Shown piece after piece: positions 1-15,603 of a stretch of DNA of 22,726 bases. A program made the position numbers and the translations under genes. The stretch lies in assembly GCA_030649735.1 (NCBI GenBank), contig JAUSFL010000025.1, positions 1 to 22,726 of the forward strand, given 5' to 3'. Source of the stretch: Candidatus Iainarchaeum sp. GTDB taxonomy: Archaea; Iainarchaeota; Iainarchaeia; Iainarchaeales; UBA10191. The notes beneath the pieces were generated by a model, which was not told where the DNA came from, searched no databases, and saw only the letters and a list, made by a program, of their open reading frames with translations. Each line of letters starts with the position of its first letter. Positions within the stretch are counted from its first letter, which is position 1.

Positions 1-3000
1 ATTTGGACAACTGATGTTTTTGGAGTTCCAAAGCTTGACTTTAATGCTTTAGAGCCAGTTTACATTAGGGGCTCTGGATTTTTGCCTTCAACTGATGTTG
101 CGCTTTCAATTACAACTCCAGATGATGATTTTTTCAATGGAAGCGCAATTTCAAGCCAGAATGGCGGTTTATTCTTTGAGTATTTGCAGCAAAAGCTTGG
201 CGGCTCTTACTTTACCACTGCTTTTGATGGAGTTAATTCTGCATCGGCTGTTTTCACTGACTGCTGTCCAGGCGCTGCCTGGACTACAAGGAGCGATTGC
301 GGTTCTGAAATACAGAATGAAAACTTTTACGGTAATGGGGAAAAAGTCTTCATTAACGGCTCTGGATTTAGTGCAGGCCATTATTCTTGGAAAATCAAGG
401 GAAAGCCCGGAAGCGCTTCCTGCGATCCAAATCAAATAGTTGCTTCCGGAAGCTTTGATGTTAATTCTGCGGGAAAATTCTGTTTTTCAGCATACACTGT
501 TGCAAACAATGATTGCGGCGAATACTCTTTCACTGCAGGCTGCAAGAATGACAATTACAATGTTGAATGCGTTGACAGGGACAATGACACTTATAAAATG
601 TACAATTTTGCCTCTTGCCCTTCAGGAAATGACTGCAATGACTCTAATTCCAGCATTCATCCGACTGCTGTGGAAGTATGCAATAACAAGGTTGATGATG
701 ATTGTGATGGAAAAGCAGATTGCGCTGATTCAAAATGCGCAAGCAGCCAGTATTGCGCCTTGGATTGCGTTCAGGCAAAAACCCTTGGCTTGTTGACTGG
801 CAGTTTCAACAATGGAGTTGCAACAATTGTCAATACTTCAAACTTTGATTTTAATGTTGGATTGGCTGTTTATGAAAAGTTTGACGAAAACATTGACAAT
901 CAACTGATTTTTGACTATAATACTGGAGTTTCAAATGCTAATGCGACTAAAAAATTGACTGTTGACCTTCCGTCCTGCAAGTACCAGATTGACTTGTTTT
1001 GCGGGGCTGTTTTGCAGTCATTGAATGGCCAAAGGTATGGCTCAAGGCTTATTGCCGGAAGCCATTTGGGCGGTCCTGATTATTGCAGTAAGTGCGGCAA
1101 TGGAGTTCTAAATTCTGGCGAAGAATGCGACGATGGCGGCAATGTTTCTGGAGACGGGTGTTCTACAATTTGTAAAATAGAGCCTTTGAAAATAATTGCG
1201 AACAAGATTGTGTGCAATTTGGAAAAAGACCTGCCTAATTGGGGAAAAGGCGGCTCTGACATTACTTCAACAACCGCGATTAATTTTGTGAATTCTCATC
1301 CTGGCTGTTATTTTGACCAGAATTGGAAATTCCAGTGGGCTTATTATTCAGTTCCAAACCCTGGAGACCACGTTGGGGAAGTTTCTTCTGCTTTGGGCTG
1401 GCATTCTTTTGGCCCGACTGACATTAATGGAAAAGCTTCAGCTTTGGTTTTTGACTTGAATGGTCAAAGCAGGCTGTGGGTCAGGGAAGTTTTCAAGACT
1501 GATTTCATTCATTTTTCTTACAATGAGCACGGCCAAAAAAACGACTACAATTACAGCGCTGAATTGTACTGCCATAATGATGTGTTGAATTATGACAATT
1601 ATGACTGGATTGGAACTACAGCAAAGCTTGGAAAAACTTACTATTGCATTGCATTCAATTCTCCAAAAGGAGAATGCGTTTCAGATGCAGACTGTCCGTC
1701 TTTAGGAAAGCCTTGCTCTGAAAACAAGTGCGTTGACAGAAAGTGCGTTGAAACCCCAAAAACTGCGGGCACTTCCTGCACTGACGGCCTGTACTGCAAT
1801 GGAAATGAAGTCTGCAATGGAAGCGGGGCTTGCGTTGCAGGAACTCCAATAAGTTGCTTTTCTTTTGACTTGAATTCAATAGGCACTTGCCTTAACTCGC
1901 CTGACAGCAATCCTTTCACTTGGGACTTTTTTGCCGGATTTGCTTCTGTTTGCAATGAAAGCAGTGATTCTTGCACTACTGGAATTGTTGACTTGACTCA
2001 TGATTGCAGCATTGAGGCTTGCAATGCAAAATGCGAAGGCAATGCAGACTGTGGCAAGACAGACTGTGACTCTTTGGACAAGTGCATTGGAAAAGACTAT
2101 TATGATTTTGACGATGTCGCCAATAATTGCGTTGGATGCGGTTGTGAAGAAAACCAGTGCGGTCCTGCCGCAAGAATCAGCCATAATGACGCGCGCTGCA
2201 CTGAATGCCAAGTTGATTCTGACTGCAGCGGCTTGAGCAAAGATTACTGCGACGGCTCTACAGTGAAGCAGGATGTGGGAAAGTGTGTTGATTTTGTTTG
2301 CACTGCAGACACTTCGACAGTGAGGGAATGCAATGATGGCTTGTTTTGCAATGGTTCTGAAACTTGCAGTAATGCCTTGTGTGTTGTCAATTCTGCAATA
2401 GACTGCAATCCATTCAACTTGCCTTCGATTGGAGAGTGTGCGTATTCTCCGGACAATAATCCGTTCACTTGGGACTTTTTTGCCGGGTTTGCTTCTGTTT
2501 GCAATGAAAGCAGTGATTCTTGCACTACTGGAATTGTTGACTTGACTCATGATTGCAGCATTGAGGCTTGCAATGCAGAATGCGAAGGCAATGCAGACTG
2601 CCCTGCCACTGAATGCGGTGTTGACACTTGCATTGGAAATGACTATTATGATTACAGCAATGCAGGCAATTCTTGCACTGGGTGTGAATGCTCTGAAAAC
2701 CAGTGCCCTTTGCCAGTAATTTCTCAGAATGACAAGAGATGTGTTGAATGCTTGATTGATTCTGATTGTGACAAGCTTGACAATGATTACTGTGATGGCT
2801 CTACAGTGAAGCAGGATGTGGGAAAGTGCGTTGATTTTGTTTGCACTGCAGACACTTCGACAGTGAGGGAATGCAATGATGGCTTGTTTTGCAATGGTTC
2901 TGAAACTTGCAGTAATGCCTTGTGTGTTGTCAGTTCTGCAATAGACTGCAATCCATTTGACTTGCCGTCAGTCGGAGAATGCAATTATTTCATTGACGGC

Positions 3001-4689
3001 TTTCCAAAAACTTGGGATTTCTTTTCAGGCTTTGAAAGCGCCTGCAATGAGCAAACAGACTCTTGCACTCAAGGAACTGAAGAAATAACTTCAAACTGCA
3101 GCATTGCAAACTGCTCTGCAGAATGTGAAAGCAATTCAGACTGCACGCCTCACTTGCTGGATAATTATTGCTATTTTGATGGAAGCTGCTCTTCAAATCC
3201 CTCTTGCGAATGCAATTATGACAATGAATTCTGCCCAGTGGCCGGAACTGTGGTTGACGGGTTTTGCTATTGGGGAGAAAGGGAATGCTCTGCTGAAGGC
3301 TGCGGCTTGAACAAGACGCCAATGAACTGTTATACAATTTGCGATCCTGAAAGCGGGCCTGTTGAATTGCCCGGTTTGAAGACTGTGAAAACAGTCACTG
3401 GCCCAAAGCTTGAATGCAATTATTTTGGAGACTTGAATGAGGCTTTCGAATGCCTGTTTGCCGCCAGCGGAACCACGCAGTATTCTTTGACTGCGGATTA
3501 TAATGGCCCGAATACTGCAAAAACATATTACAGGCAAAGATGGAAGTTTGACGTCAATTCGGCGTGGGATTCTTGGGGCTCTTGGACCTTGTATTCTGGG
3601 GCTTTTTTCTTTGCCGAATCTTCAATTCATGAATTGGAGTATTATTCTGAAGACCCAGAATGCAATATTATAGAAAAGCACAATTTTGAAATTGACATTG
3701 TTGACAATTCCTCGCCAACGCCAGTGAAGATTGTCGGGGATCCTAAAGTTCCTTGGAATGGCCTTGACTCAATATTTTACCCAAACAACAATTGCTTTAC
3801 TGGAGACATGAATTGCTGGAAAGTCTCGACTTTGACTCCAATTCATTTGGGCTGCATTGACGCCTTGCCTCATCCAGTCGGCAATGAAGGAGTTTGCTTT
3901 AACGTGGGCCTTGACGGCGACTATTACACTAAAGAGTACTGTCCAGAAAACGCGGACTTTAACAAGAATTCTGACGGCTACTGCTGTTTGAAAAACTCCA
4001 TTGATTTCTTATTTGTGGAAGAGTCAGAGCATAATCTCGCGTATTATTGCGAGGATGCATTAGGCAATAAAGGCCCAGTGGATGACGAAAAATTCAAGGT
4101 CAATGGCAGTTCTTTCAGAATAAAGCTTAACAAGAAGTGGAATTTGATCTCTGTTCCTTTCAAGCTTTTGGACAGCGATGTTTCGGCAGTGTTCAAGGAC
4201 ATTATTGGCAAAATAAATTCAGTATGGACTTTTGACGCTTTGAGTGGCCAATGGCTTGTTTTCGACCCGAAGAACATTCCAGCAAGCAATCTTTACTCAA
4301 TAGAGCCTGGAACTGGCTACTGGGTTGCTGCATTGGACAATACAGAGCTTGTTTTGGGAGGAAATATGTTCAATCCAATAACAACTCCGCCAAGCAAGCC
4401 AATAAAGCAAGGCTGGAACTTGATTGGCTATTATGGCACTGAAGGAATTCCAGAATTTAACGGCCTTAATGGCAATGGAAAGCTTGCAAGCTGTGAATTG
4501 TATTCTTTAGGAGAGTCTTTAACAGACAAGGGGTGGAATTCTCTATTGAGTTATTGGGAGCCAAGCAATCCAAACCAGTGGAAGCAATTCTATTCCAACA
4601 GCCGCCTTGATCCAGGGGCTGGCTATTGGCTTTCAGCAACTGAAGACGGAGTTTTCACTTATCCAACGACTTGCGGAGCCAGTGGTTGA
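1..4689 (+). CDS. Large Cys-rich cell-surface/secreted repeat protein, 5'-truncated (>1560 aa)
   Basis: Frame 1 is open from base 1 (IWTTDVFGVPKLDFNALEPVYIRGSGFLPSTD...), so the TTG at 82 is not the true start. MopE-like metal-binding motif (DRDNDTY...DCNDSNSSIHPTAVEVCNNKVDDDCDG, ~574-725). Myxococcus-type/DUF4215 Cys repeat (CGNGVLNSGEECDDGGNVSGDGCSTICKIE, 1093-1182). ~182-aa Cys-rich tandem repeats (~1770-3150), two Ig-like units, and a C-terminal duplicated 'WNLIS/GWNLIG...PG.GYW' domain. No C-terminal TM helix. Confidence 0.85.
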   Translation: MWTTDVFGVPKLDFNALEPVYIRGSGFLPSTDVALSITTPDDDFFNGSAISSQNGGLFFEYLQQKLGGSYFTTAFDGVNSASAVFTDCCPGAAWTTRSDCGSEIQNENFYGNGEKVFINGSGFSAGHYSWKIKGKPGSASCDPNQIVASGSFDVNSAGKFCFSAYTVANNDCGEYSFTAGCKNDNYNVECVDRDNDTYKMYNFASCPSGNDCNDSNSSIHPTAVEVCNNKVDDDCDGKADCADSKCASSQYCALDCVQAKTLGLLTGSFNNGVATIVNTSNFDFNVGLAVYEKFDENIDNQLIFDYNTGVSNANATKKLTVDLPSCKYQIDLFCGAVLQSLNGQRYGSRLIAGSHLGGPDYCSKCGNGVLNSGEECDDGGNVSGDGCSTICKIEPLKIIANKIVCNLEKDLPNWGKGGSDITSTTAINFVNSHPGCYFDQNWKFQWAYYSVPNPGDHVGEVSSALGWHSFGPTDINGKASALVFDLNGQSRLWVREVFKTDFIHFSYNEHGQKNDYNYSAELYCHNDVLNYDNYDWIGTTAKLGKTYYCIAFNSPKGECVSDADCPSLGKPCSENKCVDRKCVETPKTAGTSCTDGLYCNGNEVCNGSGACVAGTPISCFSFDLNSIGTCLNSPDSNPFTWDFFAGFASVCNESSDSCTTGIVDLTHDCSIEACNAKCEGNADCGKTDCDSLDKCIGKDYYDFDDVANNCVGCGCEENQCGPAARISHNDARCTECQVDSDCSGLSKDYCDGSTVKQDVGKCVDFVCTADTSTVRECNDGLFCNGSETCSNALCVVNSAIDCNPFNLPSIGECAYSPDNNPFTWDFFAGFASVCNESSDSCTTGIVDLTHDCSIEACNAECEGNADCPATECGVDTCIGNDYYDYSNAGNSCTGCECSENQCPLPVISQNDKRCVECLIDSDCDKLDNDYCDGSTVKQDVGKCVDFVCTADTSTVRECNDGLFCNGSETCSNALCVVSSAIDCNPFDLPSVGECNYFIDGFPKTWDFFSGFESACNEQTDSCTQGTEEITSNCSIANCSAECESNSDCTPHLLDNYCYFDGSCSSNPSCECNYDNEFCPVAGTVVDGFCYWGERECSAEGCGLNKTPMNCYTICDPESGPVELPGLKTVKTVTGPKLECNYFGDLNEAFECLFAASGTTQYSLTADYNGPNTAKTYYRQRWKFDVNSAWDSWGSWTLYSGAFFFAESSIHELEYYSEDPECNIIEKHNFEIDIVDNSSPTPVKIVGDPKVPWNGLDSIFYPNNNCFTGDMNCWKVSTLTPIHLGCIDALPHPVGNEGVCFNVGLDGDYYTKEYCPENADFNKNSDGYCCLKNSIDFLFVEESEHNLAYYCEDALGNKGPVDDEKFKVNGSSFRIKLNKKWNLISVPFKLLDSDVSAVFKDIIGKINSVWTFDALSGQWLVFDPKNIPASNLYSIEPGTGYWVAALDNTELVLGGNMFNPITTPPSKPIKQGWNLIGYYGTEGIPEFNGLNGNGKLASCELYSLGESLTDKGWNSLLSYWEPSNPNQWKQFYSNSRLDPGAGYWLSATEDGVFTYPTTCGASG
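1909..2966 (+). repeat. Intragenic tandem repeat, period 543-549 bp, with near-identical blocks
   Basis: 1909-2051 matches 2458-2600 (143 bp, 3 mismatches by eye). 2242-2423 matches 2785-2966 (182 bp, 6 mismatches by eye). The intervening segments are clearly diverged. Confidence 0.95.
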
Positions 4690-4758: not shown

Positions 4759-5877
4759 ATGGGGTTTGGGAAGTATTTTTCAATAATTCTTTTTGCTTTA
4801 ATGATTGCTGGAATTGCATTTGCGGTTCCTGCAATACCTCACCAGTTTTACGGGACCGTGACTGTTAATGGAAACCCGGCGCATGGGGCCGGAATCATTG
4901 CAAAAATCAATGGAGTCCAAGTCGCAAGCACTGCTTCAAGCAATGGAAATTACGGCTATTATCCCGATGTATTTTTTGTGACAGACCCCAACAGCACTAA
5001 TGCAGGAAAAAAAATTCAATTCTTCCTGAACGGAACCAATGTTGCAGAATTCACTTTCAAGAATGGCGAAAGCACACAGCTTAATCTTTCAGTCGGAACA
5101 AGCAGTGGAGTTTGCGGCGATGGAACTTGCAACGCTAGCGAAAACTGCGGCTCTTGCGCTGCAGACTGTGGAACTTGCACTGTGCCTCCAGTTGGCCCTC
5201 CAGCAGGCGGCGGTGGCGGCGGTGGAGGCGGCGGTGGAGGCGGCGGCGGAAGCGGCTTGCTTTTGAGCTTTGATGGAAACTGCATTGGAAAAACACTTAT
5301 TGTGAAAGCCACTTTGGGGACAAATTCTCCGGCAGACAATGCGACAGTCAATGTAATGCACAATCAAAAAAATGCTGGCAGTTCAACGACTGACGCGCAA
5401 GGAAAAGCAACATTCACTTTTGCCGAAATTGGAAAATACACTTTTACAGCAAACAAAGGCTACACTACAAGCATTCCCACAACAACAGAGCTTTTTGACT
5501 GCAGCAGCGGCGCGGTAAAATCAAACAATACTGGCGACAGCAACAACTCAAGCAATAACACACAGTCGCAGCCAGCCCCAACATTAGACGCTGGAAAGCT
5601 TTGCTCTGAAATAAACTGCAATGACTCAAACCCTTGCACTATTGACTCTTGCACTACCGGAGTCTGCGTTTACAATAACGCGCCTGACGGGACAAAATGC
5701 CCAACTGGAACTTGCCAAACCGGAATTTGCACTGCTCCAACACCACAGCAAAATTCTGCAACTGGCTTTGTTAGCCTGCCTGTTTTAGGCAATGTTTCAG
5801 GAATTGCAGTCGGCTTGGGATTGGTAGTTATTGTAGTTTTGGGAATTGGATTGTTTTTCATTACGAGAAAAAAGTAA
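4759..5877 (+). CDS. Secreted, C-terminally membrane-anchored surface protein (372 aa)
   Basis: Signal peptide ending in AFA; N-terminal 'PHQFYGTVTVNG' beta domain; CGDGTC...CAADC module; Gly15 linker; Ig-like domain; Dictyostelium-type CNDSNPCTIDSC repeat; C-terminal TM helix followed by RKK. Confidence 0.9.
   Translation: MGFGKYFSIILFALMIAGIAFAVPAIPHQFYGTVTVNGNPAHGAGIIAKINGVQVASTASSNGNYGYYPDVFFVTDPNSTNAGKKIQFFLNGTNVAEFTFKNGESTQLNLSVGTSSGVCGDGTCNASENCGSCAADCGTCTVPPVGPPAGGGGGGGGGGGGGGGSGLLLSFDGNCIGKTLIVKATLGTNSPADNATVNVMHNQKNAGSSTTDAQGKATFTFAEIGKYTFTANKGYTTSIPTTTELFDCSSGAVKSNNTGDSNNSSNNTQSQPAPTLDAGKLCSEINCNDSNPCTIDSCTTGVCVYNNAPDGTKCPTGTCQTGICTAPTPQQNSATGFVSLPVLGNVSGIAVGLGLVVIVVLGIGLFFITRKK
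5206..5250 (+). repeat. GGN repeat encoding 15 consecutive glycines
   Basis: ggcggcggtggcggcggtggaggcggcggtggaggcggcggcgga. Confidence 0.95.
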
Positions 5878-6237: not shown

Positions 6238-9200
6238 TTGGATAGTGCTGTTTCTAAATTATTGATTGCTTCATTCTTGGTTATTGCAAGCATTGCTGTC
6301 TTATTGTTTTTTGTCCAGCCGCAACCGACTGCTTTAGTCACTGCTGTTTCCCAGCAAATCCCTGAAACTGTTTTTAATGAAAGCAAGGCTGTTCCTAATG
6401 GTTCTTTGCAAACCGAAAATTCAGATTCTGATTCTTCACAATTGGCTTCAACTGGATTGTCTGAAGCAGGCCAGGATTCAGGTTCAAAAGGCCAAAAAAA
6501 TCCCGGAATTCCAGGCAGTGGCGCTGGCGCAGGCCTTGGCGGCGGAGCTGGCAGCAGCAGTTCTTCAACTGGCTTGCAGCCAAATTCAATTCCTCCAGTA
6601 ATCAATCCTCCAGCAAGCGCAAGTTCTTTAAGCAGTGAATTTGCTGCGGTTTTTTCCCCAAGCATTGAAGAAGTTTCCTTGGCTGAAGGGGAAACAGCAA
6701 GTTTTTCAGCAAGCCCAAATAAGGATGCCAATTTTGAATGGCAGCTTGATGGAATGCAGATTTCAAGCGAAAAGAATTTTGCATTCAAGACAATGCAGGG
6801 CTTTGAAGGCTCTTATTTTTTGCAGGCTTTTGCAAGGAATGGAAATGAAATGAAATTCAAGTCCTGGAATATTACTGTGAAAAAGCCTTCAGGCGGCTAC
6901 ACTGTTGCTTCTCAGGCTTCTACTGAAGACTTGAATGCTTTGAAGAAACTGCATTCTTCATTAAAGCAATTTTTGCTTTCTGCACCTTCAATTCCGCAGA
7001 CTGTAATTTTGACTGTCAGGAAAGGAAGCGCTGAAAGCATTGTTAATCAATTGAAAAACATTGGAATCAATGACGCGAACATCATTCCGCCAGGAGTCTT
7101 GATTGCCGTAAGGCTTTCTCCAAGCAGGTTCTTGCAGCTTGCAAAAATTAGCGGCTTGGATTTCTTGAACCCGAACTTCAAGTATTCGGCAATGGAAACA
7201 GTCAACCCGAACATTTCGCAAGTTGGTGCTCCATTGGTTTGGGCAAAAGTCTTGAATGACAAGAACATTACTGGAAAAGGTGTGAAAGTTGGGGTATTGG
7301 ACACTGGAATTAACTCCAGGAATGCTTACCTTGGCTATCGTGTTGGGTTAAAGATTGTTTTTTATGACCCTTGGGGTTATGGGCCGCTGCGTCCTGAAGA
7401 TGCGCTAGGCACTGGGCATGGAAGTCATGTTGCAGGAATTGTTGCCGGCGGAAAGCAGGGAACAAGAGTTGATTATAACTGGAATTATTTTGTGGGGGAT
7501 TATGGCCTTTTTGCGTTGATTAATTCTAAAATAATTCTTGTTGATTCTCTTGGTTTCACTTTTGACAGGAATTTTGAAAGCGGAAGCTGGGACGTAAATT
7601 ATGACATTATAAAATCCACTGATTCTTTGCGTTGCACTTTGTCAAATCAGACAACATGCAGTGAAACATACCCTTATAACATTGGCACTGGAACTATTGC
7701 CGCAACCTTGCCTGCGGATGGAAACCTGAATTTGTGGGTTTATTTTTCCAATCCTGCAAGCCTTAAGGAGATTAATATTTACCTTGGGACAAACAGTTCC
7801 AATTATAGGTTGTTCAAGCAAGATTCCGGTCTTCCTGCAAGTCCCGGCTGGTTTAAGGCAAATTTCAACATAAATCAGCCATACTCTAGCATTGGCTCTT
7901 TAACTGCAGGAAATCCTTTAAACTATAGCAAAGCCCAGACTGTTTATTCTGTTCCAGTGAGCACTCAAGACTTTTTTGACTATTTAGTAATTCAGCCAGC
8001 ATATTGCAGGCATAATGCAAGCACTGATTTGCTTGAATGCTCTCAAGTGCACGACATTAATTCAATTGGAATTGCTCCTGACGCAAACATTTGGAATATT
8101 ACAGTGATGGATGAGCTTGGAAATGGGGATGTATCTGCGATTACTGGCGCAATGCTTTGGGCTGCGGATCAGGGAATCAAAGTACAAAACTTGAGCTTAG
8201 GCCGGGCGGCCAATGACCCTAATGACCCAATTGTTCTGCAAATGAAAGCATTGCATGATTTTAACTATGATGTTTCTTTTGTTGTTTCTGCAGGAAATTG
8301 CGGCAATGAAGGTCCGGATCCTAATTGCGGCAGTTATAGAGGCATTACAACTCCAGGCATAAGCCAAGACGCCATTACAGTTGCTGCTGTTGATTCAAGC
8401 AATCAAAAAGCGGGCTTTTCAAGCTCGGGAGAGGGTGTTCTTGGAAAGCCTGACTTGGCTGCGCCCGGCGTCAATATAAATTCTGGCTTTAGGATAAATC
8501 CTTATTATTATGCGTCTGACACAACTGCTGTTTTTTCAGGCACTTCAATGAGTGCTCCGCATGTTACTGGCGCTGTTGCCTTGATGCTTCAGGCAAAGCC
8601 TGACTTGAATTGGCAGGAAGTCAAGAACTTTCTTTCTTTAAGCGCAAAAGACTTGGGGCCTCAAGGCTTTGACGTGAATTATGGGTGGGGTTTGCTGGAT
8701 TTGAACTCGCTTTGGAAGCCAAGGCCAGTGTTCAGCCAAAACCCGGCTTTTTGGAGCGCTGAAGTCGGAAGCTTTGCTGACTTTAATGTAAGCCTTGCAA
8801 ATAATGGTTTTGGAGACTTGAATGTCACTGGAATAATTCCAAGCAGTCCCAGAATACAGGCATGGCTTGACTCAAACAATGTATCTGCTTTCAGCAGCAC
8901 TTTGCTGAATGTTAAAGTTGATTCAAACAATGCTTGGGGCGGCTTTAATGGCATTGTGCATTTTGAAAACCTTGGCGGTTCGTTTGATTTAAACATTTAC
9001 GGCTCTTTTTATGAGCTGAATCCTCCAGTTACAACTTCTGACATTAATGATGGGGTGTGGCGGGCTTTTGATGCAAATGTCCATTTGGCATGCAATGATG
9101 GCAATGCAAGCTCTGGCTGCGCTTGGACAAACTATCGGCTTGACTCTAATCCTTCAAGCGGCACTAGTTTTGGAGGCTGGCAGCCTTATTCTGGCCCTAT

Positions 9201-12200
9201 TTTGTTTTCAACTGACGGCAATTTTGCATTGGAGTTTTACTCAGTGGACAATGCCTTCAATTTTGAATCTGCCAAAATAGCATTTGTTCTGATTGACAAG
9301 ATTTCTCCCGCAACAATTTCCGATGCTAACAGTAATTGGCAGAATTTTGATGCTGGTGTTTCTTTAGCTTGCATTGATGATTGGTCAGGTTGTGCTTTGA
9401 CTCAGTTCAGGGTTGATTCCGACGCTTCAAATAGTGCCAGCTTTGGAGCTTGGCAGGCTTATTCTAACCCAATATTGTTTTCTGCAGATGGTAATTTTGC
9501 TTTAGACTTTAATTCTATAGATAATGCCGGCAATGTTGAAGCTACTAAAAGAGTTTTTGTTTTAATTGACAAGACTGCTCCGTTAACGATTTCTGACATT
9601 AATTCAGCTTGGCAGAATTTTGATGCCAACGTGCACCTGACTTGCTTTGACGCTAATTCTGGCTGTGCTTTAACGCAATATCGTCTTGACATTGACTCGG
9701 GTTCGGTAATTAGTTTTGGGGCTTGGCAGAATTATTCTAGCCTGATTTTGATTTCTAGTGATGGAAACTTTGCTTTGGATTTCAATTCTACAGACAATGC
9801 AGGCAATGTTGAATTGACAAAGCATGCTTTTGTTTTGATTGACAAGAATGCTCCAAGCGTTTCAGCAGTTAGTCTTTCTGGAGCTCAAAGTTTTGCAAAC
9901 TTCATTAATGGAAATTCTGTGAATTGGAGTGCGGCTGTTTCTGATGCGGCTTCTGGATTAAACCCCGCAACTTGTGAAACTTCAAGCACTGTTTCTTGGA
10001 CTGCAGGAAATTACTCTGCAGGAAATTGCTTTACCTTAATTCCAATTTCAATAAATAATGGCACAAATTACCAGTTTGGCGTCAGAATTAGAGACAATGT
10101 TTCAAACCAAGGCCAGAGTTTGACAATGTCATACACTGGAGACACTGCTGCTCCAACAACAACTGCTTCTGGCTGTCCTTTAGGCTGGAATAATTCCAAT
10201 CAAACAATTGCTTTAGCTTGTAGTGACAGTTCTGGCTCTGGCTGTTCCCTAACACGATACAGAATTGATGGCGGTGTTTGGCAGTCTGGAAATTCAATTT
10301 CTTTGACAACTGACGGAAACCACAAGGTTGACTTTAATTCTTCAGACAATTTGGGAAATTATGAAGTTCTAAAAACAATTTATTGTGCAGTTGACAAATT
10401 CCCGCCTTCGATTCCATCACTTAATGCTGGAGCAATAACAAATTCTTCAATTGAAGTTATTGCTTCAGGTTCGGTTGATTCTTTAAGCGGCTTGCATGCC
10501 TTGCCGTACTGGTTTGAAGAATATGTAACAAGCCCCAGCAATTCTGGTTGGCAAGCATCAAGCTGGATAAAGTCAAGCTTGAATCCAAACACGCAATATT
10601 TTTTCAATGTTAAAGCAAGAGATTCCGCAAATAACGAAGCCGGTTATGGTTGGCTTCAAAAATTTACCTTAGCAAACAACCCTAGAATTGTGTCAGTTTC
10701 CTGCAGCATTAGTTCTTGCAGTGTTTATTTTGACTCAAATGGCAACCCAGACACTGAATATTATATTGATGAGAATTCTGGAAATCCAGGCGGCAGTGAT
10801 TTGCAATGGAATGTTATTGTTTCGCCCTATGGTGATTCAGGCCTTAGTGCTGGAACACAATACTGTTATCAAATCAAAGCAAGAAATGGCAACCAGGCTG
10901 AAACTGTTTTTTCAACCCTGGTTTGTGCTACTACTGTAATTACAGCTCCAGTTCTTTCAGCAACTGCTCAAACAACCAAACCAATTAATAGTTCTCAAGG
11001 AGCGGTGAGTTTAAGCTGGAGCGATATTACTGGAGAAACTTCATACACTGCTTACAGAAGCGTTAATGGGGTAAATTATGCAAGAATTCTTTCAGGAGAT
11101 TGTGCAAGCACTCCAGCAAATGACATTGCTTGCTTGGATGATATTTTAAGTGATAACAATTTATACTATTACAAAATTCAAGCCAATTCTGCAGGAGGAG
11201 ACATTAACAGCAATGTTGCAGCAGCTTTCACTCCGGACAGGACGCAGCCAGAAAATTTTACTTTAAGCGTTGCAGCAAATAATTCATTGAACAGGGAAGA
11301 GCTTTCTTGGACTCAAGCCACAGACAACAACACTCCGCAAGCAAGCATTGACTATAACATTTTCAAAAGCCTTGACGGAGTTTCTTTCAATTACTTAAAC
11401 CACCTTGTTGGCTCTGCAGCCTTTAATGATGCTTCAGCGAAAGATTTTAACGCGCCTAACTCAACAAGCATTTCCGCAATTAATTCAAATTCTCCAGCAA
11501 GTATCAGCCTTAATTGGAACGCTTCCGCAGATAATGGAAGCAATTACTATTATTACCTGTCGGCAATTGACTGGCAGAAGAACTGGCGCAGCAGTAATTC
11601 AGGCAATGCAATTGTGGCAACTGGATTGAAAGGCTATTATGCAAGAAACACTACTTCAAGCACTGAAGCATTCACTTCTTTGACTAATTCCTCATTTTCT
11701 GGCCTAACTGCAAATTCGCAGTACTGCTTTACAGTAAAAGCACAGGATAATGCAGACAACAATTCCACAGCAAGCTCTCAATTATGCACTTTCACTCTTG
11801 CAAACAAGCCAAGAATTCTTTCAGTCTCTTGCGCTGTGAATGACTGCACTGTTTCAATAGACTTGAACAACAATCCTTTAGGGACTGACTTGAATGTTGG
11901 AATTGTGCAAGGAGCTGCGAACGGGGGAAGTGATTCTGGCTGGTTTGCTTCAAGCTCTAATCCAGAAACTTTCATTGATTCTGGCTTGCAGCCCGGAACT
12001 CAATACTGCTATGTAGTGAAAGCAAGGAATGGCAATTCAATTCTTACTGCAAGCTCTCAGCAAGCTTGCGGAACAACTGCTCTTTCAGGCAGCATTGTTT
12101 TAACAGCAACTGCTCAATCCAACAAGCCTAAGAATTCTTCTTTGGGAAGAATCACTTTAAGCTGGAATGACATTAGTGGAGAAATAGGTTATGATGTTTT

Positions 12201-15200
12201 CAGAAGCTTGAATGGAATTTCATTTTCCAAAATAGCCTCAAGCCTTCCCGCAAATTCAACAAGTTATGACAATGACAATTTGAACGATAATAATTCATAC
12301 TATTATAAAGTGCAGGCTATTTCGAGCACTTCTCCAATTGGAGACATGAATTCTAACACCGCCAGCGCTGTAACTCTTGACAGGACATCACCAAGCGCAG
12401 TAAGCAATTTGGCGGCTTCTTACATTGTGAATCAATCCAATCTTTCATGGACTCAAGCAACTGATAATTCCACTCCTCAATCAAGCATTGACTATAATAT
12501 TTTGCGTTCTTTGAGCGGAATTGTTTACAATAGAATTGGCGCAGTTAGAGGGCAAGGAAATTATTCTGACACTACTGCAAGAGACAATGCTGCTCCGCAA
12601 GCGCCAAGCTTGCCTTTAGTTAATGCAGATTCTAATGTCCAACTTACAGTTTCTTGGGCTTTGGTTGCGGACAATGGAAACAGTTATTACTTCAAGCTTA
12701 ATGCTGTTGATGCACAGCAGAATGATTCAAATTCTAACACATCCTTGGTTAATGCTGTTTCTGGATTGAAAGATTATAATGTTTTAACTTCTGGCGGAGC
12801 TTCAAGAATAGACTCTAACAATATCCCGAATGGTTTAAGGCTTTCTGGCTTAAACCCTAACATTAATTACTGCTTCCAAATTGCTGCAAGAGACAATGCG
12901 TTAAATTTAAGCCCTTACTCTGCACAAGCCTGCAAGTTCACTCTAGCCAATATTCCAATCATTAACGGAGTTTCTTGCAATACTTCAAGCTGTAATGCAA
13001 GCTTTAACCTTGCTGGAAATCCTGCAGGCACTCAATACTTCATTGACGAAATCACTGGAAATTCTGGCGGAACAGATTTTGGCTGGAGTACAGCAGCTTC
13101 TCCTTATGTTGATTCTGGCTTGCTTGAGGCAACGCAGTATTGTTACAGGATTAAGGCAAGGAATTTAGAGAGTGTTGAAACAGCTTTCTCCCAGCAAGTT
13201 TGCTCTACTACAGGAAGCACTCCAATAGCTTGCAGCAATGATGTGCAATGCAGTGATAGCAATTCTTACACGCAAGACTCGTGCATTAATCCAGGAACTC
13301 CGCAGTCTTACTGCTCTTATCAGCCGATAGCTTGCATTTCAAGCACTGACTGCAATGATGCCAACGCGCATACTTTTGACTCGTGCATTAATCCAGGCAC
13401 TATACAATCTTACTGTTCTTTTGAAAGCATTGCGTGCCTTACTGATTCAGAATGCGATGACAGCAATCCTTCAACAACAGACTCTTGCACTAATGCAGGC
13501 ACTCCATCAGCTTACTGCACTAACAATCTAACGCAATACTGCGGCAATGGAGCAATTGATTCAGGCGAGCAATGTGATGGCGTGAACTTGAATTCTCAAA
13601 CTTGCCAGTTTTTAGGCTTTAGCACTGGCAGTTTAGCTTGCAATGCAAACTGTACTTTCAATACTTCACAATGCATTACAGCCCCAGTGTTAAGATTGTT
13701 TTTGCCTTTAGAGCAGAATGCTCTTGACTCTTCAGCCTTTAACAATAACGGAACTTTGCTTGGAAACTCAAGAATTGCTGATGATGCAACTCGCGGAAAA
13801 GTGTTAAAGCTTGACGGAACAGCAAACTCTTATGTTAGAATTGCAGACAATGCAAGCTTGGATTTTGGAAACCAAAACTTTACAGTAATGGCCTGGGCGA
13901 AAACAAGCAACAAACTACAGCAGTTCTTGCTTGCAAAAACATACTTTGATGCTGCTCCAGGCTATGGGTTTTACAGGGAACAGGTTTACTTGAGCAATGG
14001 CCAATGGTGGAATCAAGGCGATGCTGACAGCAACAAGCCTCATTTTGCAGCTTCGGGCTCTCCTTTAGACTCTAACGACTGGCGTGATGGAAAATGGCAT
14101 CACGTTGCTGCTGTTTTTAACAGAGAGCAGAAAAGAATTGACATTTTCATTGACTCGCAGTTAAAGACTTCCTGGCGTTACTGGAATCCAGCAAAAGAAT
14201 CAAGCATTGACAATGACTTGGACTTGCTGATTGGAGCAGGCTATGCGCCTTACATTAGAGAGCCATCACAGCACGGCACTGTTTCAGGATTTTATTATGA
14301 CGGTTCAGTAGACAATGTTAGAATTTACGACAAGACTTTAACGCAAGCTCAAATTCAAGAAGTTTATACTGCAGAATTTTTGCCTGAAGCCCCAGCATCT
14401 TGCGGCAATGGAATTGCTGACGCTAACGAGCAGTGCGATTTGCAAGATTTGGCTGGCAAATCATGCAATTCTTTGGGCTTTGATTTAGGCGGAAGCCTTT
14501 CATGCACTGCTTCCTGCAGGCTTAACACTTCACAATGCAGTGAATCACCTAACTTGATTTTGAACGGAAGCTTTGCAGACTGGAACAACAGCAAGCCCGA
14601 CATTTGGTATTGGATATGGGCAGCAGGCAATGGGACCATTGAACAGTCAACAGACTCTTTTGACGCAAGCCCAGCATTCAAGCTGACTTCCAAGCAGACT
14701 TACATTGGCGTTACTTCAAACTTGATTGATGTCTTGCCTGGAGACAATGTTACTTTGATATTCAGCACTAAAGTTTTGACGCCCGGCCAGAATTACTGGG
14801 CAAAGATTTCAAGCACTGACTGGAACCAGCAGTGGTATTTGCAGGGCGGCTCTCCTGACTGGAGCGTGAAAACAATTACAGCAACTGTTCCGCAAAATCT
14901 TCGCAAGCTTGTAGTGCAGCTTGGAATAGGGCCAACAAATGACATTAACACTTCAGTATTGTTTGATGCAGTAAAATTCAGGATTAACAGGCCGCAGCCA
15001 GTTTGCGGCAATGGAGTCATTGAAGGAACTGAAAGATGCGATTCAGCAAACTTGAATAATAATTCTTGCAATTCTTTAGGGTTTGACTTGGGCGGAACAT
15101 TAACGTGCTCTCCAGCATGCGATTTTGACACTGCATTATGCAATGCTTCGCAATCGCTGGTCTTGAACGGCGGCTTTGAGCAATGGCAGAACAGCCTGCC

Positions 15201-15603
15201 TTTGAATTGGGGCAAGGCATACTGTGTTTATGGCCCGCAAGATACTGTAGTGCAGCAATCAACTGATGCTTTTGAAGGAAGCCTTGCAGTGAAGGTTTCT
15301 TCGACTGCGCCTTATTGTGGAATTTACTCCCAGCAAATTGACGTGAATTCTGGGCAAACACTCACTTTGACTTTTAGAGCGCGTTCTGGAACTGTTGGAA
15401 ACACTTACTGGGGCAGGATTGCAAGCTCTGATTACCAGCATCAGGCTTTTGTTGAGGACTGGGGGCATGAGTGGGAGTCAAACACAGTCAATTTTGTTGT
15501 CCCGCAAGGCGTGAGCAAGGTTTACATACAATTAGGCGCTGGCTATACTAATGGAATTCCAACAACAACCTTTTTTGATAACTTGCGCGTGAGAAAATCA
15601 TAA
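6238..15603 (+). CDS. Giant S8 (subtilisin-like) serine protease / adhesin, ~3120 aa
   Basis: ORF open from 6211; TTG 6238 preferred because of the SD-like site. N-terminal hydrophobic helix, Gly/Ser linker, Ig-like domain, propeptide-like region. Intact triad LDTG (D 7300), GHGSHVAG (H 7417), GTSMSAPHV (S 8545) and oxyanion SAGN. Then 91-aa Ig-like repeats, FN3-like repeats (W...Y.Y.IKARN), Cys-rich repeats, a LamG-like domain (DGKWHHVAAVF...GSVDNVRIY, ~13690-14370) and two CBM4/9-like domains (NL.LNG.F...FD). Confidence 0.93.
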   Translation: MDSAVSKLLIASFLVIASIAVLLFFVQPQPTALVTAVSQQIPETVFNESKAVPNGSLQTENSDSDSSQLASTGLSEAGQDSGSKGQKNPGIPGSGAGAGLGGGAGSSSSSTGLQPNSIPPVINPPASASSLSSEFAAVFSPSIEEVSLAEGETASFSASPNKDANFEWQLDGMQISSEKNFAFKTMQGFEGSYFLQAFARNGNEMKFKSWNITVKKPSGGYTVASQASTEDLNALKKLHSSLKQFLLSAPSIPQTVILTVRKGSAESIVNQLKNIGINDANIIPPGVLIAVRLSPSRFLQLAKISGLDFLNPNFKYSAMETVNPNISQVGAPLVWAKVLNDKNITGKGVKVGVLDTGINSRNAYLGYRVGLKIVFYDPWGYGPLRPEDALGTGHGSHVAGIVAGGKQGTRVDYNWNYFVGDYGLFALINSKIILVDSLGFTFDRNFESGSWDVNYDIIKSTDSLRCTLSNQTTCSETYPYNIGTGTIAATLPADGNLNLWVYFSNPASLKEINIYLGTNSSNYRLFKQDSGLPASPGWFKANFNINQPYSSIGSLTAGNPLNYSKAQTVYSVPVSTQDFFDYLVIQPAYCRHNASTDLLECSQVHDINSIGIAPDANIWNITVMDELGNGDVSAITGAMLWAADQGIKVQNLSLGRAANDPNDPIVLQMKALHDFNYDVSFVVSAGNCGNEGPDPNCGSYRGITTPGISQDAITVAAVDSSNQKAGFSSSGEGVLGKPDLAAPGVNINSGFRINPYYYASDTTAVFSGTSMSAPHVTGAVALMLQAKPDLNWQEVKNFLSLSAKDLGPQGFDVNYGWGLLDLNSLWKPRPVFSQNPAFWSAEVGSFADFNVSLANNGFGDLNVTGIIPSSPRIQAWLDSNNVSAFSSTLLNVKVDSNNAWGGFNGIVHFENLGGSFDLNIYGSFYELNPPVTTSDINDGVWRAFDANVHLACNDGNASSGCAWTNYRLDSNPSSGTSFGGWQPYSGPILFSTDGNFALEFYSVDNAFNFESAKIAFVLIDKISPATISDANSNWQNFDAGVSLACIDDWSGCALTQFRVDSDASNSASFGAWQAYSNPILFSADGNFALDFNSIDNAGNVEATKRVFVLIDKTAPLTISDINSAWQNFDANVHLTCFDANSGCALTQYRLDIDSGSVISFGAWQNYSSLILISSDGNFALDFNSTDNAGNVELTKHAFVLIDKNAPSVSAVSLSGAQSFANFINGNSVNWSAAVSDAASGLNPATCETSSTVSWTAGNYSAGNCFTLIPISINNGTNYQFGVRIRDNVSNQGQSLTMSYTGDTAAPTTTASGCPLGWNNSNQTIALACSDSSGSGCSLTRYRIDGGVWQSGNSISLTTDGNHKVDFNSSDNLGNYEVLKTIYCAVDKFPPSIPSLNAGAITNSSIEVIASGSVDSLSGLHALPYWFEEYVTSPSNSGWQASSWIKSSLNPNTQYFFNVKARDSANNEAGYGWLQKFTLANNPRIVSVSCSISSCSVYFDSNGNPDTEYYIDENSGNPGGSDLQWNVIVSPYGDSGLSAGTQYCYQIKARNGNQAETVFSTLVCATTVITAPVLSATAQTTKPINSSQGAVSLSWSDITGETSYTAYRSVNGVNYARILSGDCASTPANDIACLDDILSDNNLYYYKIQANSAGGDINSNVAAAFTPDRTQPENFTLSVAANNSLNREELSWTQATDNNTPQASIDYNIFKSLDGVSFNYLNHLVGSAAFNDASAKDFNAPNSTSISAINSNSPASISLNWNASADNGSNYYYYLSAIDWQKNWRSSNSGNAIVATGLKGYYARNTTSSTEAFTSLTNSSFSGLTANSQYCFTVKAQDNADNNSTASSQLCTFTLANKPRILSVSCAVNDCTVSIDLNNNPLGTDLNVGIVQGAANGGSDSGWFASSSNPETFIDSGLQPGTQYCYVVKARNGNSILTASSQQACGTTALSGSIVLTATAQSNKPKNSSLGRITLSWNDISGEIGYDVFRSLNGISFSKIASSLPANSTSYDNDNLNDNNSYYYKVQAISSTSPIGDMNSNTASAVTLDRTSPSAVSNLAASYIVNQSNLSWTQATDNSTPQSSIDYNILRSLSGIVYNRIGAVRGQGNYSDTTARDNAAPQAPSLPLVNADSNVQLTVSWALVADNGNSYYFKLNAVDAQQNDSNSNTSLVNAVSGLKDYNVLTSGGASRIDSNNIPNGLRLSGLNPNINYCFQIAARDNALNLSPYSAQACKFTLANIPIINGVSCNTSSCNASFNLAGNPAGTQYFIDEITGNSGGTDFGWSTAASPYVDSGLLEATQYCYRIKARNLESVETAFSQQVCSTTGSTPIACSNDVQCSDSNSYTQDSCINPGTPQSYCSYQPIACISSTDCNDANAHTFDSCINPGTIQSYCSFESIACLTDSECDDSNPSTTDSCTNAGTPSAYCTNNLTQYCGNGAIDSGEQCDGVNLNSQTCQFLGFSTGSLACNANCTFNTSQCITAPVLRLFLPLEQNALDSSAFNNNGTLLGNSRIADDATRGKVLKLDGTANSYVRIADNASLDFGNQNFTVMAWAKTSNKLQQFLLAKTYFDAAPGYGFYREQVYLSNGQWWNQGDADSNKPHFAASGSPLDSNDWRDGKWHHVAAVFNREQKRIDIFIDSQLKTSWRYWNPAKESSIDNDLDLLIGAGYAPYIREPSQHGTVSGFYYDGSVDNVRIYDKTLTQAQIQEVYTAEFLPEAPASCGNGIADANEQCDLQDLAGKSCNSLGFDLGGSLSCTASCRLNTSQCSESPNLILNGSFADWNNSKPDIWYWIWAAGNGTIEQSTDSFDASPAFKLTSKQTYIGVTSNLIDVLPGDNVTLIFSTKVLTPGQNYWAKISSTDWNQQWYLQGGSPDWSVKTITATVPQNLRKLVVQLGIGPTNDINTSVLFDAVKFRINRPQPVCGNGVIEGTERCDSANLNNNSCNSLGFDLGGTLTCSPACDFDTALCNASQSLVLNGGFEQWQNSLPLNWGKAYCVYGPQDTVVQQSTDAFEGSLAVKVSSTAPYCGIYSQQIDVNSGQTLTLTFRARSGTVGNTYWGRIASSDYQHQAFVEDWGHEWESNTVNFVVPQGVSKVYIQLGAGYTNGIPTTTFFDNLRVRKS
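9022..9846 (+). repeat. Three tandem ~91-aa (273 bp) Ig-like repeats; a fourth diverged copy at ~10141-10398
   Basis: Repeated P.T.SD.N..W..FDA.V.L.C.D..SGCA.T.YR.D...FG.WQ.YS..IL.S.DGNFAL.F.S.DNA.N.E..K..FVLIDK. Confidence 0.92.
10663..13215 (+). repeat. FN3-like super-repeat, ~376-382 aa period, about 2.2 copies
   Basis: FTLAN.P.I..VSC recurs at 10663, 11791 and 12937. SWTQATDN.TPQ.SIDYNI and TQYCY..KARN recur in register. Confidence 0.88.
13225..13527 (+). repeat. Three tandem 34-aa (102 bp) four-Cys repeats
   Basis: IAC.....C.D.N..T.DSC.N.GT...YC starting at 13225, 13327 and 13429. Confidence 0.92.

Follow-up and report, generated by a model that had tools for sequence, protein, structure and literature searches.

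The tripeptide D-x-N is in excess in exported surface proteins of Iainarchaeota and may mark asparagines for modification after export

A giant exported protein rich in D-x-N

The stretch of DNA analyzed here (the window: 22,726 nucleotides, positions 1 to 22,726 of contig JAUSFL010000025.1, assembly GCA_030649735.1, Candidatus Iainarchaeum sp.) encodes on its forward strand a giant exported protein at 6238-15603, in which the tripeptide aspartate-any residue-asparagine (D-x-N) occurs far more often than composition predicts. Behind a hydrophobic N-terminal membrane anchor, the domain order is a Peptidase_S8 domain with a large insert, immunoglobulin (Ig)-like modules of the OmpL47 type, FN3 repeats, Cys-rich repeats, LamG, and C-terminal beta-sandwich repeats. 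Pfam matches comprised Peptidase_S8 (PF00082, E 5.8e-44), several fn3-type repeats, and Laminin_G_3, and the S8 catalytic Asp, His, and Ser motifs (VLDTG, GHGSHVAG, and SGTSMSAPH) were present and alignable to subtilisins. Four Ig-like modules of ~91 amino acids sit between the S8 and FN3 parts, residues 930-1390 being the OmpL47-type/Fn3-like region. The features of the gene are as follows.

6238..15603, + strand: giant exported protein, 3121 amino acids from TTG 6238 (TTG 6211 is an alternative open reading frame start), 65 D-x-N
7138..8787, + strand: S8 protease domain plus insert, residues 301-850, 14 D-x-N against 3.1 expected
8779..9222, + strand: densest D-x-N stretch, 10 of 11 Asp with Asn at +2
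9025-9309, 9310-9582, and 9583-9855, + strand: three tandem Ig-like modules, ~91 amino acids each, D-x-N at recurring alignment columns
10132..10407, + strand: fourth Ig-like module of the same family, more divergent

The translation of 6238-15603 contained 190 Asp and 301 Asn (9.6%), and its 65 D-x-N compared with 18.3 expected and with a mean of 18.4 (standard deviation 3.9, maximum 31) over 2000 shuffles. The reversed pair N-x-D occurred 10 times (0.55-fold), and D-x-N was the sole outlier at this spacing (z 10.9, next 3.3) among residue pairs with an expected count of at least 5. Local composition was rejected as the cause by block shuffles of 20, 40, or 100 residues, under which the expectation stayed at 19-20, and repeats were rejected by masking: with every downstream internal-repeat copy removed (1168 of 3121 amino acids), 40 D-x-N remained against 10.6 expected (3.8-fold; shuffle maximum 23). 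Six of seven regions reached at least about 2.5-fold over expectation, including, besides the S8 domain plus insert, the Ig-like (20 against 4.4) and FN3 (17 against 5.9) parts, the exception being LamG (2 against 1.5). Ser or Thr stood two residues past the Asn at 11 of the 65 sites (nine without an intervening Pro), no more than composition predicts. Pro was found twice between Asp and Asn (position X1) and twice directly past the Asn (position X2), and only four sites continued as N-D.

The excess in the giant protein is real, and the original prediction was confirmed in every detail of its observation. It had put the tripeptide at about 65 occurrences holding roughly a third of the Asp, with Asn about a tenth of residues; the same ten tripeptides were recovered from the 11 Asp of 8779-9222; and its statement that the motif crosses unrelated folds, so that duplication would not suffice, was matched by the regional and masked counts, the latter (40 against 10.6) also being the composition-shuffled control after repeat collapse that it had proposed. 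Its figure of only about 10 sites continuing as N-x-S/T compares with the 11 counted, and the poverty in D-x-N that it had noticed among the cytoplasmic proteins of the window was seen in NadA, the metallophosphoesterase, phosphoribosyl pyrophosphate (PRPP) synthetase, Dus, and HIT, with zero to one occurrence each.

Two parts of the protein had further peculiarities. The S8 insert of ~200 amino acids lies between the His and Ser motifs (window ~7438-8040, residues 405-600), has no subtilisin counterpart, and was modelled at low confidence (predicted local distance difference test, pLDDT, 27-60). In the C-terminal part (window 13200-15603), three CGNG...C..C Cys-rich units alternate with LamG or carbohydrate-binding module-like beta-sandwich domains, and two of the units are mutual repeats (masked residues 2722-2775 and 2923-3100).

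Restriction of the excess to exported proteins of one lineage

The D-x-N excess is not a property of the folds that carry it and is restricted to one lineage. Among the best 150 homologues of the Ig-like region, searched among 1.84 billion representatives, D-x-N was below expectation in 105, 1.5-2.5-fold in three, and at least 2.5-fold in 22, one of them the giant protein itself; the median score was 0.73 and 11 homologues lacked the tripeptide. The high scorers were the closest relatives and, where a taxon label was present, came from Ca. Diapherotrites and Ca. Micrarchaeota. Labelled low scorers were a Victivallaceae bacterium, an unclassified bacterium, an actinobacterium, Paenibacillus, Fictibacillus, and one Thermoplasmata archaeon (0 D-x-N against 4.2 expected), and two of the homologues bear the NCBI name "OmpL47-type beta-barrel domain".

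Comparison of 136 modules from high scorers with 1559 from low scorers placed D-x-N at four or five separate column pairs, where the low group held Thr, Ser, Pro, or Tyr in the Asn columns. Column 14 was Asn in 51% of the high group against Thr in 45% of the low group, and column 52 was Asn in 80% against Thr in 27% and Ser in 14%, and both groups had in common an S-x-D-x-A-G-N-x-E motif at columns 59-67. These alignments indicate that D-x-N was gained independently at several module positions that hold other residues elsewhere. The D-x-N-rich group also had a Cys pair at columns 19 and 26 (70% and 67%), where the low group had Ala and Val, which looks like a lineage-specific disulfide across the sandwich.

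The same was seen in the protease domain, since none of the S8 sites that could be aligned to Bacillus subtilisins, with the alignment read by eye, is D-x-N there. Across 120 bacterial S8 proteases, D-x-N occurred 277 times against 168.5 expected (1.64-fold), so that the baseline of this fold is not exactly 1, though 68 of the 277 were a conserved D-x-N-G-H-G; another 22 of the 277 were DPN.

The 1.28-Mb genome G000, in which 1238 open reading frames of at least 80 amino acids were called by a simple caller of our own, showed the excess to be tied to export. Throughout the genome-wide figures, "exported" follows a crude hydrophobic N-terminus rule rather than a trained signal-peptide predictor. 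By this rule D-x-N reached 597 against 347 expected (1.72-fold) in exported and 364 against 409 (0.89-fold) in cytoplasmic proteins, the genome-wide contrast that the original prediction had proposed to examine. N-x-D stood at 0.89-fold and 0.87-fold in the two sets, and E-x-N at 0.94-fold in the exported one. DPN was undepleted in the whole exported set (25 against 24.1), which suggests that a generic Asx-Pro type coexists with the lineage-specific D-x-N type.

The excess was concentrated in some of these proteins. Among 34 large non-cytoplasmic proteins of G000 (exported or membrane-bound), nine scored 2.6-6.5-fold and 14 scored below 1. The strongest carriers, as judged by sequence, were an S-layer-type protein (C3:9573-12725, 47 D-x-N against 7.3) and, side by side at C49:18071-21462, a pair of pilin-like proteins (25 against 4.2; 12 against 1.9), and D-x-N reached three to six times chance in large outer-surface proteins of Iainarchaeota. 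The pilin-like genes belong to a conserved run (G000:C49:17518-21462 and locus L061:1363-5986 of G032) with class III-type signal peptides as judged by eye, and its products are among the D-x-N-richest in both genomes. A D-x-N-depleted class of large exported proteins was seen as well (C16:35264-40066, 0 against 6.5; C15:3228-5684, 0 against 4.0; C24:13662-18092, 1 against 7.5), and the pooled low-scoring exported class, at 0.53-fold, was similar to the bacterial homologues. High and low genes lay on the same contigs with the same G+C content at third codon positions (GC3), and a protein class kept its excess from genome to genome (Spearman 0.85 over 11 reciprocal best-hit pairs); neither contamination nor recent gene transfer was therefore supported as the source of the low scorers.

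Seven relatives from the same order were sampled at 220-400 kb each. They are listed below with the variant of the oligosaccharyltransferase AglB discussed further on, where "none found" stands for no STT3 match in that genome.

G032: AglB WWD, exported D-x-N 3.12-fold
G022 (67% complete): AglB none found, exported D-x-N 2.35-fold
G034: AglB WWN, exported D-x-N 1.78-fold
G018: AglB WWD, exported D-x-N 1.49-fold
G038: AglB WWN, exported D-x-N 1.44-fold
G014: AglB WWD, exported D-x-N 1.21-fold
G030 (89% complete): AglB none found, exported D-x-N 1.08-fold

Cytoplasmic D-x-N ranged from 0.71- to 1.07-fold in these genomes, and all seven had at least a few strongly enriched proteins. In GTDB the phylum consists of little more than one order and one family. 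When 185,579 species' genomes were scanned for the module motif [DN]GN[FYW]A[LI][DE][FI][NY], 35 loci were found, of which more than half were labelled Candidatus Iainarchaeum or Diapherotrites (including I. andersonii) and the remainder mostly uncultured archaeon, with three Micrarchaeota, one Woesearchaeota, and one "bacterium". The non-cytoplasmic open reading frames at these loci pooled 1780 D-x-N against 505.7 expected, a biased sample because the search motif itself includes D-x-N.

Upstream of the giant gene, the window encodes two further proteins with D-x-N counts above expectation.

1..4689, + strand: neighbouring Cys-rich giant surface protein, cut by the window start, 22 D-x-N against 11.6 expected, 11 N-x-D
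4759..5877, + strand: 372-amino-acid protein between both giants, 4 D-x-N against 1.2 expected, counts too small for judgement

The excess in the neighbouring giant is weaker than in the 6238-15603 protein. Its Cys content is 7.4%, and it has long internal repeats and one match to a MopE-type metal-binding motif. The genes beside the giant gene (NadA, metallophosphoesterase, a beta-propeller protein, PRPP synthetase, Dus, and HIT) included no glycosyltransferase.

Sequence rules, conservation, and structural setting of the sites

The anatomy of the motif was read from 59 high-scoring proteins (78,331 amino acids, 2177 D-x-N sites), a pool in which only neighbour statistics are informative because the proteins were picked by the excess itself. 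Of the Asn in the pool, 32% belonged to a D-x-N, as did 37% of the Asp. Related pairs had no excess, with E-x-N at 0.57-fold, N-x-N at 0.67-fold, N-x-D at 0.75-fold, D-x-D at 0.77-fold, and D-x-G at 0.74-fold, and the comparison with N-x-D and E-x-N suggested in the original prediction thus singled out D-x-N.

Pro was nearly excluded from the tripeptide and from the position behind it, occurring in 14 of 2177 sites at X1 (0.19-fold) and in 28 of 2177 (1.3%) directly past the Asn, against 4.8% past other Asn of the same proteins; outside D-x-N it was normal (1.17-fold before the Asp, 1.02-fold two residues past the Asn). Asp was likewise excluded at both inner positions (0.18-fold and 0.23-fold), and two residues past the Asn both Asp (0.42-fold) and Asn (0.54-fold) were scarce. 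Ser or Thr at this +2 position was found in 528 of 2177 sites (24.3%), against 22.1% for other Asn. Hydrophobic residues were favoured at +1, +3, and +5, an alternation that suggests that many sites lie at the start of a beta-strand. The median spacing between sites was 19 residues, and only 19 of 2120 spacings were below five residues.

Codon usage at the sites was examined in 28 high-scoring genes from eight genomes, 6238-15603 of the window included. The Asp codon GAC was commoner within D-x-N (586 of 936 against 905 of 1729 other Asp, odds ratio 1.52) and the shift of Asn to AAC was weaker (odds ratio 1.18), and mixing of genome G+C contents may confound both.

Sites were conserved between diverged orthologues. 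The S-layer-like proteins of G000 and G018 (28% identity) share 24 D-x-N, of 47 and 53; of 45 aligned cases, 27 retained the motif Asp and 27 the motif Asn, compared with 3 of 14 for other Asp and 8 of 42 for other Asn. This conservation indicates that selection acts on the D-x-N sites. Over all between-genome high-scoring segment pairs, motif Asn was exchanged with Gly in 5.6% of cases against 7.0% for other Asn. A left-handed turn position, with Asn standing for Gly, was therefore rejected, the Asn taking the place of Thr, Ser, Pro, or Tyr and the exchange with Gly not being raised.

Predicted structures placed the sites in varied surroundings. The AlphaFold2 model of Ig-like module 3 (9583-9855; pLDDT 92.6) is a beta-sandwich whose best Foldseek match was the weak one of the CbhA Fn3-like module (template modelling score 0.62, E 1.8e-3), consistent with a generic Fn3/PKD-like sandwich. 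Of its six D-x-N Asn, three lie in strands (two at the second residue, one mid-strand) and three in the linker or in loops. The S8 model (mean pLDDT 71) has nine of its 14 sites in blocks with a pLDDT of at least 70, where the Asn opens a strand in two cases and a helix in two and lies in loops in five. D-x-N is, in these models, independent of secondary structure, being found at strand starts, mid-strand, at helix starts, and in loops. The hydrophobic alternation, rather than the coordinates, implies that the strand-placed Asp and Asn of the modules face solvent. The mapping on predicted structures advocated in the original prediction thus brought out varied contexts with no single local structure, and on exposure it yielded only this indirect indication.

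Candidate readers, rival explanations, and known systems

Our tentative preference is that D-x-N is recognized for modification of its Asn once the protein has been exported, N-glycosylation with the -2 Asp as determinant being the leading candidate, and we give this reading slightly less than an even chance. Positive selection would maintain D-X-N (X not Pro, next residue not Pro) as a mark on the proteins that lie outermost in Iainarchaeota (Diapherotrites, DPANN), namely S-layer-like, type IV pilin-like, and giant adhesin-like proteins such as the product of 6238-15603. A lineage-specific enzyme would read it on the extended chain after export, the Asn would then be modified, and the -2 Asp would take the role that the +2 Ser/Thr has elsewhere in N-glycosylation. 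A strict one-way tripeptide that is limited to export and lineage, was apparently gained several times, excludes Pro, and is indifferent to structure fits a reader better than universal physical chemistry. S-layer and pilin proteins are classic archaeal N-glycoproteins, and we take the strongest D-x-N carriers, S-layer-like and pilin-like by sequence, to resemble these types; since in addition the Asn is fixed, N-glycosylation is the first choice. The counts, alignments, and models establish the statistics, the limits of lineage and of export, the site conservation, the exclusion of Pro, and the independence from fold; we infer an enzyme that reads D-x-N, a glycan as the modification, and the identity of the enzyme, for which the lineage's divergent AglB or an oligosaccharyltransferase-like glycosyltransferase of the GT-C type, a paralogue, would be the candidates. 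The more specific proposal that D-X-N is the main N-glycosylation sequon of Iainarchaeota, with the -2 Asp bound, the +2 hydroxyl dispensable, and a divergent AglB or a GT-C paralogue lacking WWDYG as the enzyme, is plausible but less likely than not. Literature searches on AglB, PglB, and sequons, on Iainarchaeum, Diapherotrites, and glycosylation, and on the motif itself brought up no description of D-x-N as a sequon or as a motif of surface proteins.

The single AglB of G000 (G000:C46:133248-135320) matched the STT3 family (PF02516) with 93.7 bits, over the cut-off. In its first external loop the first acidic motif EFDPYWH aligned to EFDPYFN of STT3A, and in its FNWWNQGHW (WWNQG) an Asn took the alignment position that the Asp of WWDYG has in mammalian STT3A, an alteration of the WWDxG motif of the kind that the original prediction had proposed to look for. 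According to PMC8342417, WWDYG together with DK/MI forms the Ser/Thr-binding site of oligosaccharyltransferase, bacterial sequons are D/E-X-N-X-S/T, and Pro is strictly barred at X of N-X-S/T. Of the AglB loci in the order, 28 had the motif, G000 included, eight as WWN and 20 as WWD, and the DK/MI region after WWxxG was highly variable across the order (SDSARFF, GKVALFM, RDFSIFL, and others). A Lys 10-11 residues past TVGE(E) was conserved in 27 of 27 aligned AglBs and may serve as a lead. No STT3 match was found in three genomes that are 89%, 67%, and 68% complete. Besides AglB, G000 encodes two PMT_2-type GT-C enzymes, and its GT-C paralogues lie at G000:C6:19913-21547 and C46:150489-151631.

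Several observations weigh against a reader that modifies Asn. WWD was kept in 20 of the 28 AglB loci, and in 19 of 27 AglBs with the motif when relatives were counted, the genome with the strongest excess among them, and the excess did not follow the AglB variant (1.44-1.78-fold in WWN and 1.21-3.12-fold in WWD genomes), so that a change from WWD to WWN was rejected as its cause for want of correlation across the six genomes with a typed AglB. One genome in which no AglB was found (67% complete) had a D-x-N excess of 2.35-fold and the other (89% complete) 1.08-fold, and the PMT_2-type paralogues were rejected as the reader, their presence not tracking the excess in five genomes. The mark is on only part of the exported proteome, with two of the 14 low-scoring large proteins of G000 lacking D-x-N (6.5 and 4.0 expected). 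N-x-S/T was still about 1.2-fold enriched in exported proteins, high and low classes alike, which suggests that AglB probably still reads N-x-S/T. Part of the Pro depletion could stem from placement at strand starts, and the case for Asn modification is drawn throughout from sequence and models. The original prediction of an enzyme reading D-x-N without a +2 hydroxyl residue therefore stood in part: the limits of export and lineage and the dispensable Ser/Thr agreed with it, and the excess that does not track WWN, the persisting N-x-S/T enrichment, and the confinement to a subset of proteins did not.

A serious competing explanation, though less likely than not, is a structural or cation-binding pair, in which an Asp/Asn clasp, a strand or helix cap, or a Ca2+/Mg2+ site would reflect lineage-specific packing or stabilization with no enzyme as reader. 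An Asp and an Asn two residues apart would face the same exposed side of an extended chain, and the hydrophobic residues at +1, +3, and +5 would turn both outwards at many strand starts, as would suit the Asn found within the first two strand residues in four of 15 modelled sites and at a helix start in two. Such a pair would also fit the conservation of the sites, which exceeds that of other Asp and Asn two- to threefold and in which both residues persist or disappear together, an excess confined to some exported families of stable membership (the Spearman coefficient of 0.85 over 11 pairs), and a DIN at residue 606 aligned with a loop that we take to be Ca site A of subtilisin; that modification was deduced from sequence speaks for it too. 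Physical chemistry is universal, yet bacterial and Thermoplasmata modules scored 0.5-0.7-fold or zero, and D-x-D, N-x-D, and E-x-N, which should chelate or bond about equally, were depleted. The Asp two residues past the Asn that EF-hand or DxDxDG styles call for stood at 0.42-fold, and Pro after Asp at 0.19-fold, against the 22 DPN among 277 sites of bacterial S8 proteases. The Asn stood for Thr, Ser, Pro, or Tyr and not for Gly (exchange 5.6% against 7.0%), which disfavours a left-handed turn position, and sites occurred in mid-strand as well as in loops, in linkers, and at helix starts. Of the alternatives named in the original prediction, the generic Asx turn and the EF-hand-type Ca2+ loop fail, and the structural or cation-binding Asp-Asn pair is what remains of them.

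Unlikely, by comparison, is a reader that does not modify Asn, such as a lineage-specific factor for export, sorting, or assembly, a surface lattice or host ligand with affinity for D-x-N strands, or selection against cleavage by the cell's own secreted proteases. The limits of lineage, export, direction, and protein class would suit any directional reader, and the carrier in the window is itself a secreted S8 protease; against this, the Asn is invariant, the neighbour rules resemble oligosaccharyltransferase sequons, tens of sites per protein of 1000-3000 amino acids exceed what sorting or docking needs, and no candidate factor turned up. An artefact of composition, tandem duplication, DNA-level bias, or chance, which the richness of the giant protein in Asn, Ser, and Asp and its several repeat families might suggest, has a negligible probability, as neither global nor local shuffles reached the observed count, the excess outlived repeat masking with the reversed pair depleted, and cytoplasmic genes of G000 had no excess while high and low genes share contigs and GC3.

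If D-x-N is a site of Asn modification and, within that reading, a sequon, a lineage would be able to alter its acceptor code of N-glycosylation, which is regarded as N-X-S/T for archaea and eukaryotes, some bacteria adding an acid at -2, and a third oligosaccharyltransferase acceptor code would stand beside N-X-S/T and D/E-X-N-X-S/T. About a third of the Asn in S-layer-, pilin-, and adhesin-like proteins would then be glycan sites, the glycosylation sites of an uncultivated DPANN phylum could be predicted from sequence, and glyco-engineering would gain an enzyme together with a short acceptor tag of a new kind. Should the pair be structural, exposed beta-strand edges would be built in a lineage-specific way that had so far escaped notice. 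On either reading, the density of D-x-N in the sequence is enough to tell one stable class of surface proteins in Iainarchaeota from the others.

Known turns and metal sites resemble the motif in part. Asx turns, Asx-Pro turns, and helix N-caps have an Asp at i and a polar residue at i+2, and Pro after Asp is favoured in Asx-Pro turns. Some D-x-N start helices or strands in this way, and the mild excess in bacterial S8 proteases is of such a generic kind; unlike these turns, the D-x-N described here excludes Pro after Asp (0.19-fold), reaches an excess of three- to six-fold, is lineage-specific, and includes mid-strand positions. Both an Asx-Pro and a generic Asx turn were rejected on the Pro depletion and on the median of 0.73-fold in the same modules elsewhere. 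EF-hand-like and dockerin Ca2+ loops (D-x-[DN]-x-[DN]-G) and cadherin DxNDN linkers begin with D-x-N or D-x-D. Here, in contrast, Asp two residues past the Asn was depleted (0.42-fold), as was D-x-D, and N-D followed at only four of 65 sites of the giant protein; an EF-hand-like or DxDxDG loop was rejected on position 5 (Asp 0.42-fold, Asn 0.54-fold) and on D-x-D (0.77-fold).

The Campylobacter PglB sequon D/E-X1-N-X2-S/T shares with D-x-N the acidic residue two before the acceptor Asn (here Asp only), the bar on Pro at both X positions, and exported targets. It differs in that Glu is no substitute here (E-x-N 0.57-fold), that the +2 Ser/Thr is not required (24.3% against 22.1%), and that the host is an archaeon with an AglB/STT3-type enzyme, for which a glycan is proposed. 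A study of C. lari PglB put forward a salt bridge between Arg331 and the -2 Asp (PMC4894442), and the conserved Lys past TVGE(E) of AglB would be a possible parallel, as a lead only. With the archaeal and eukaryotic N-X-S/T systems, the similarities are the one AglB gene, the mild N-x-S/T enrichment in exported proteins, and carriers of S-layer, pilin, and adhesin type by sequence. Unlike the WWDYG of archaeal and eukaryotic AglB/STT3, G000 and seven further loci of the 28 in the order have WWN, and the motif in excess here lies upstream of the Asn and not downstream.

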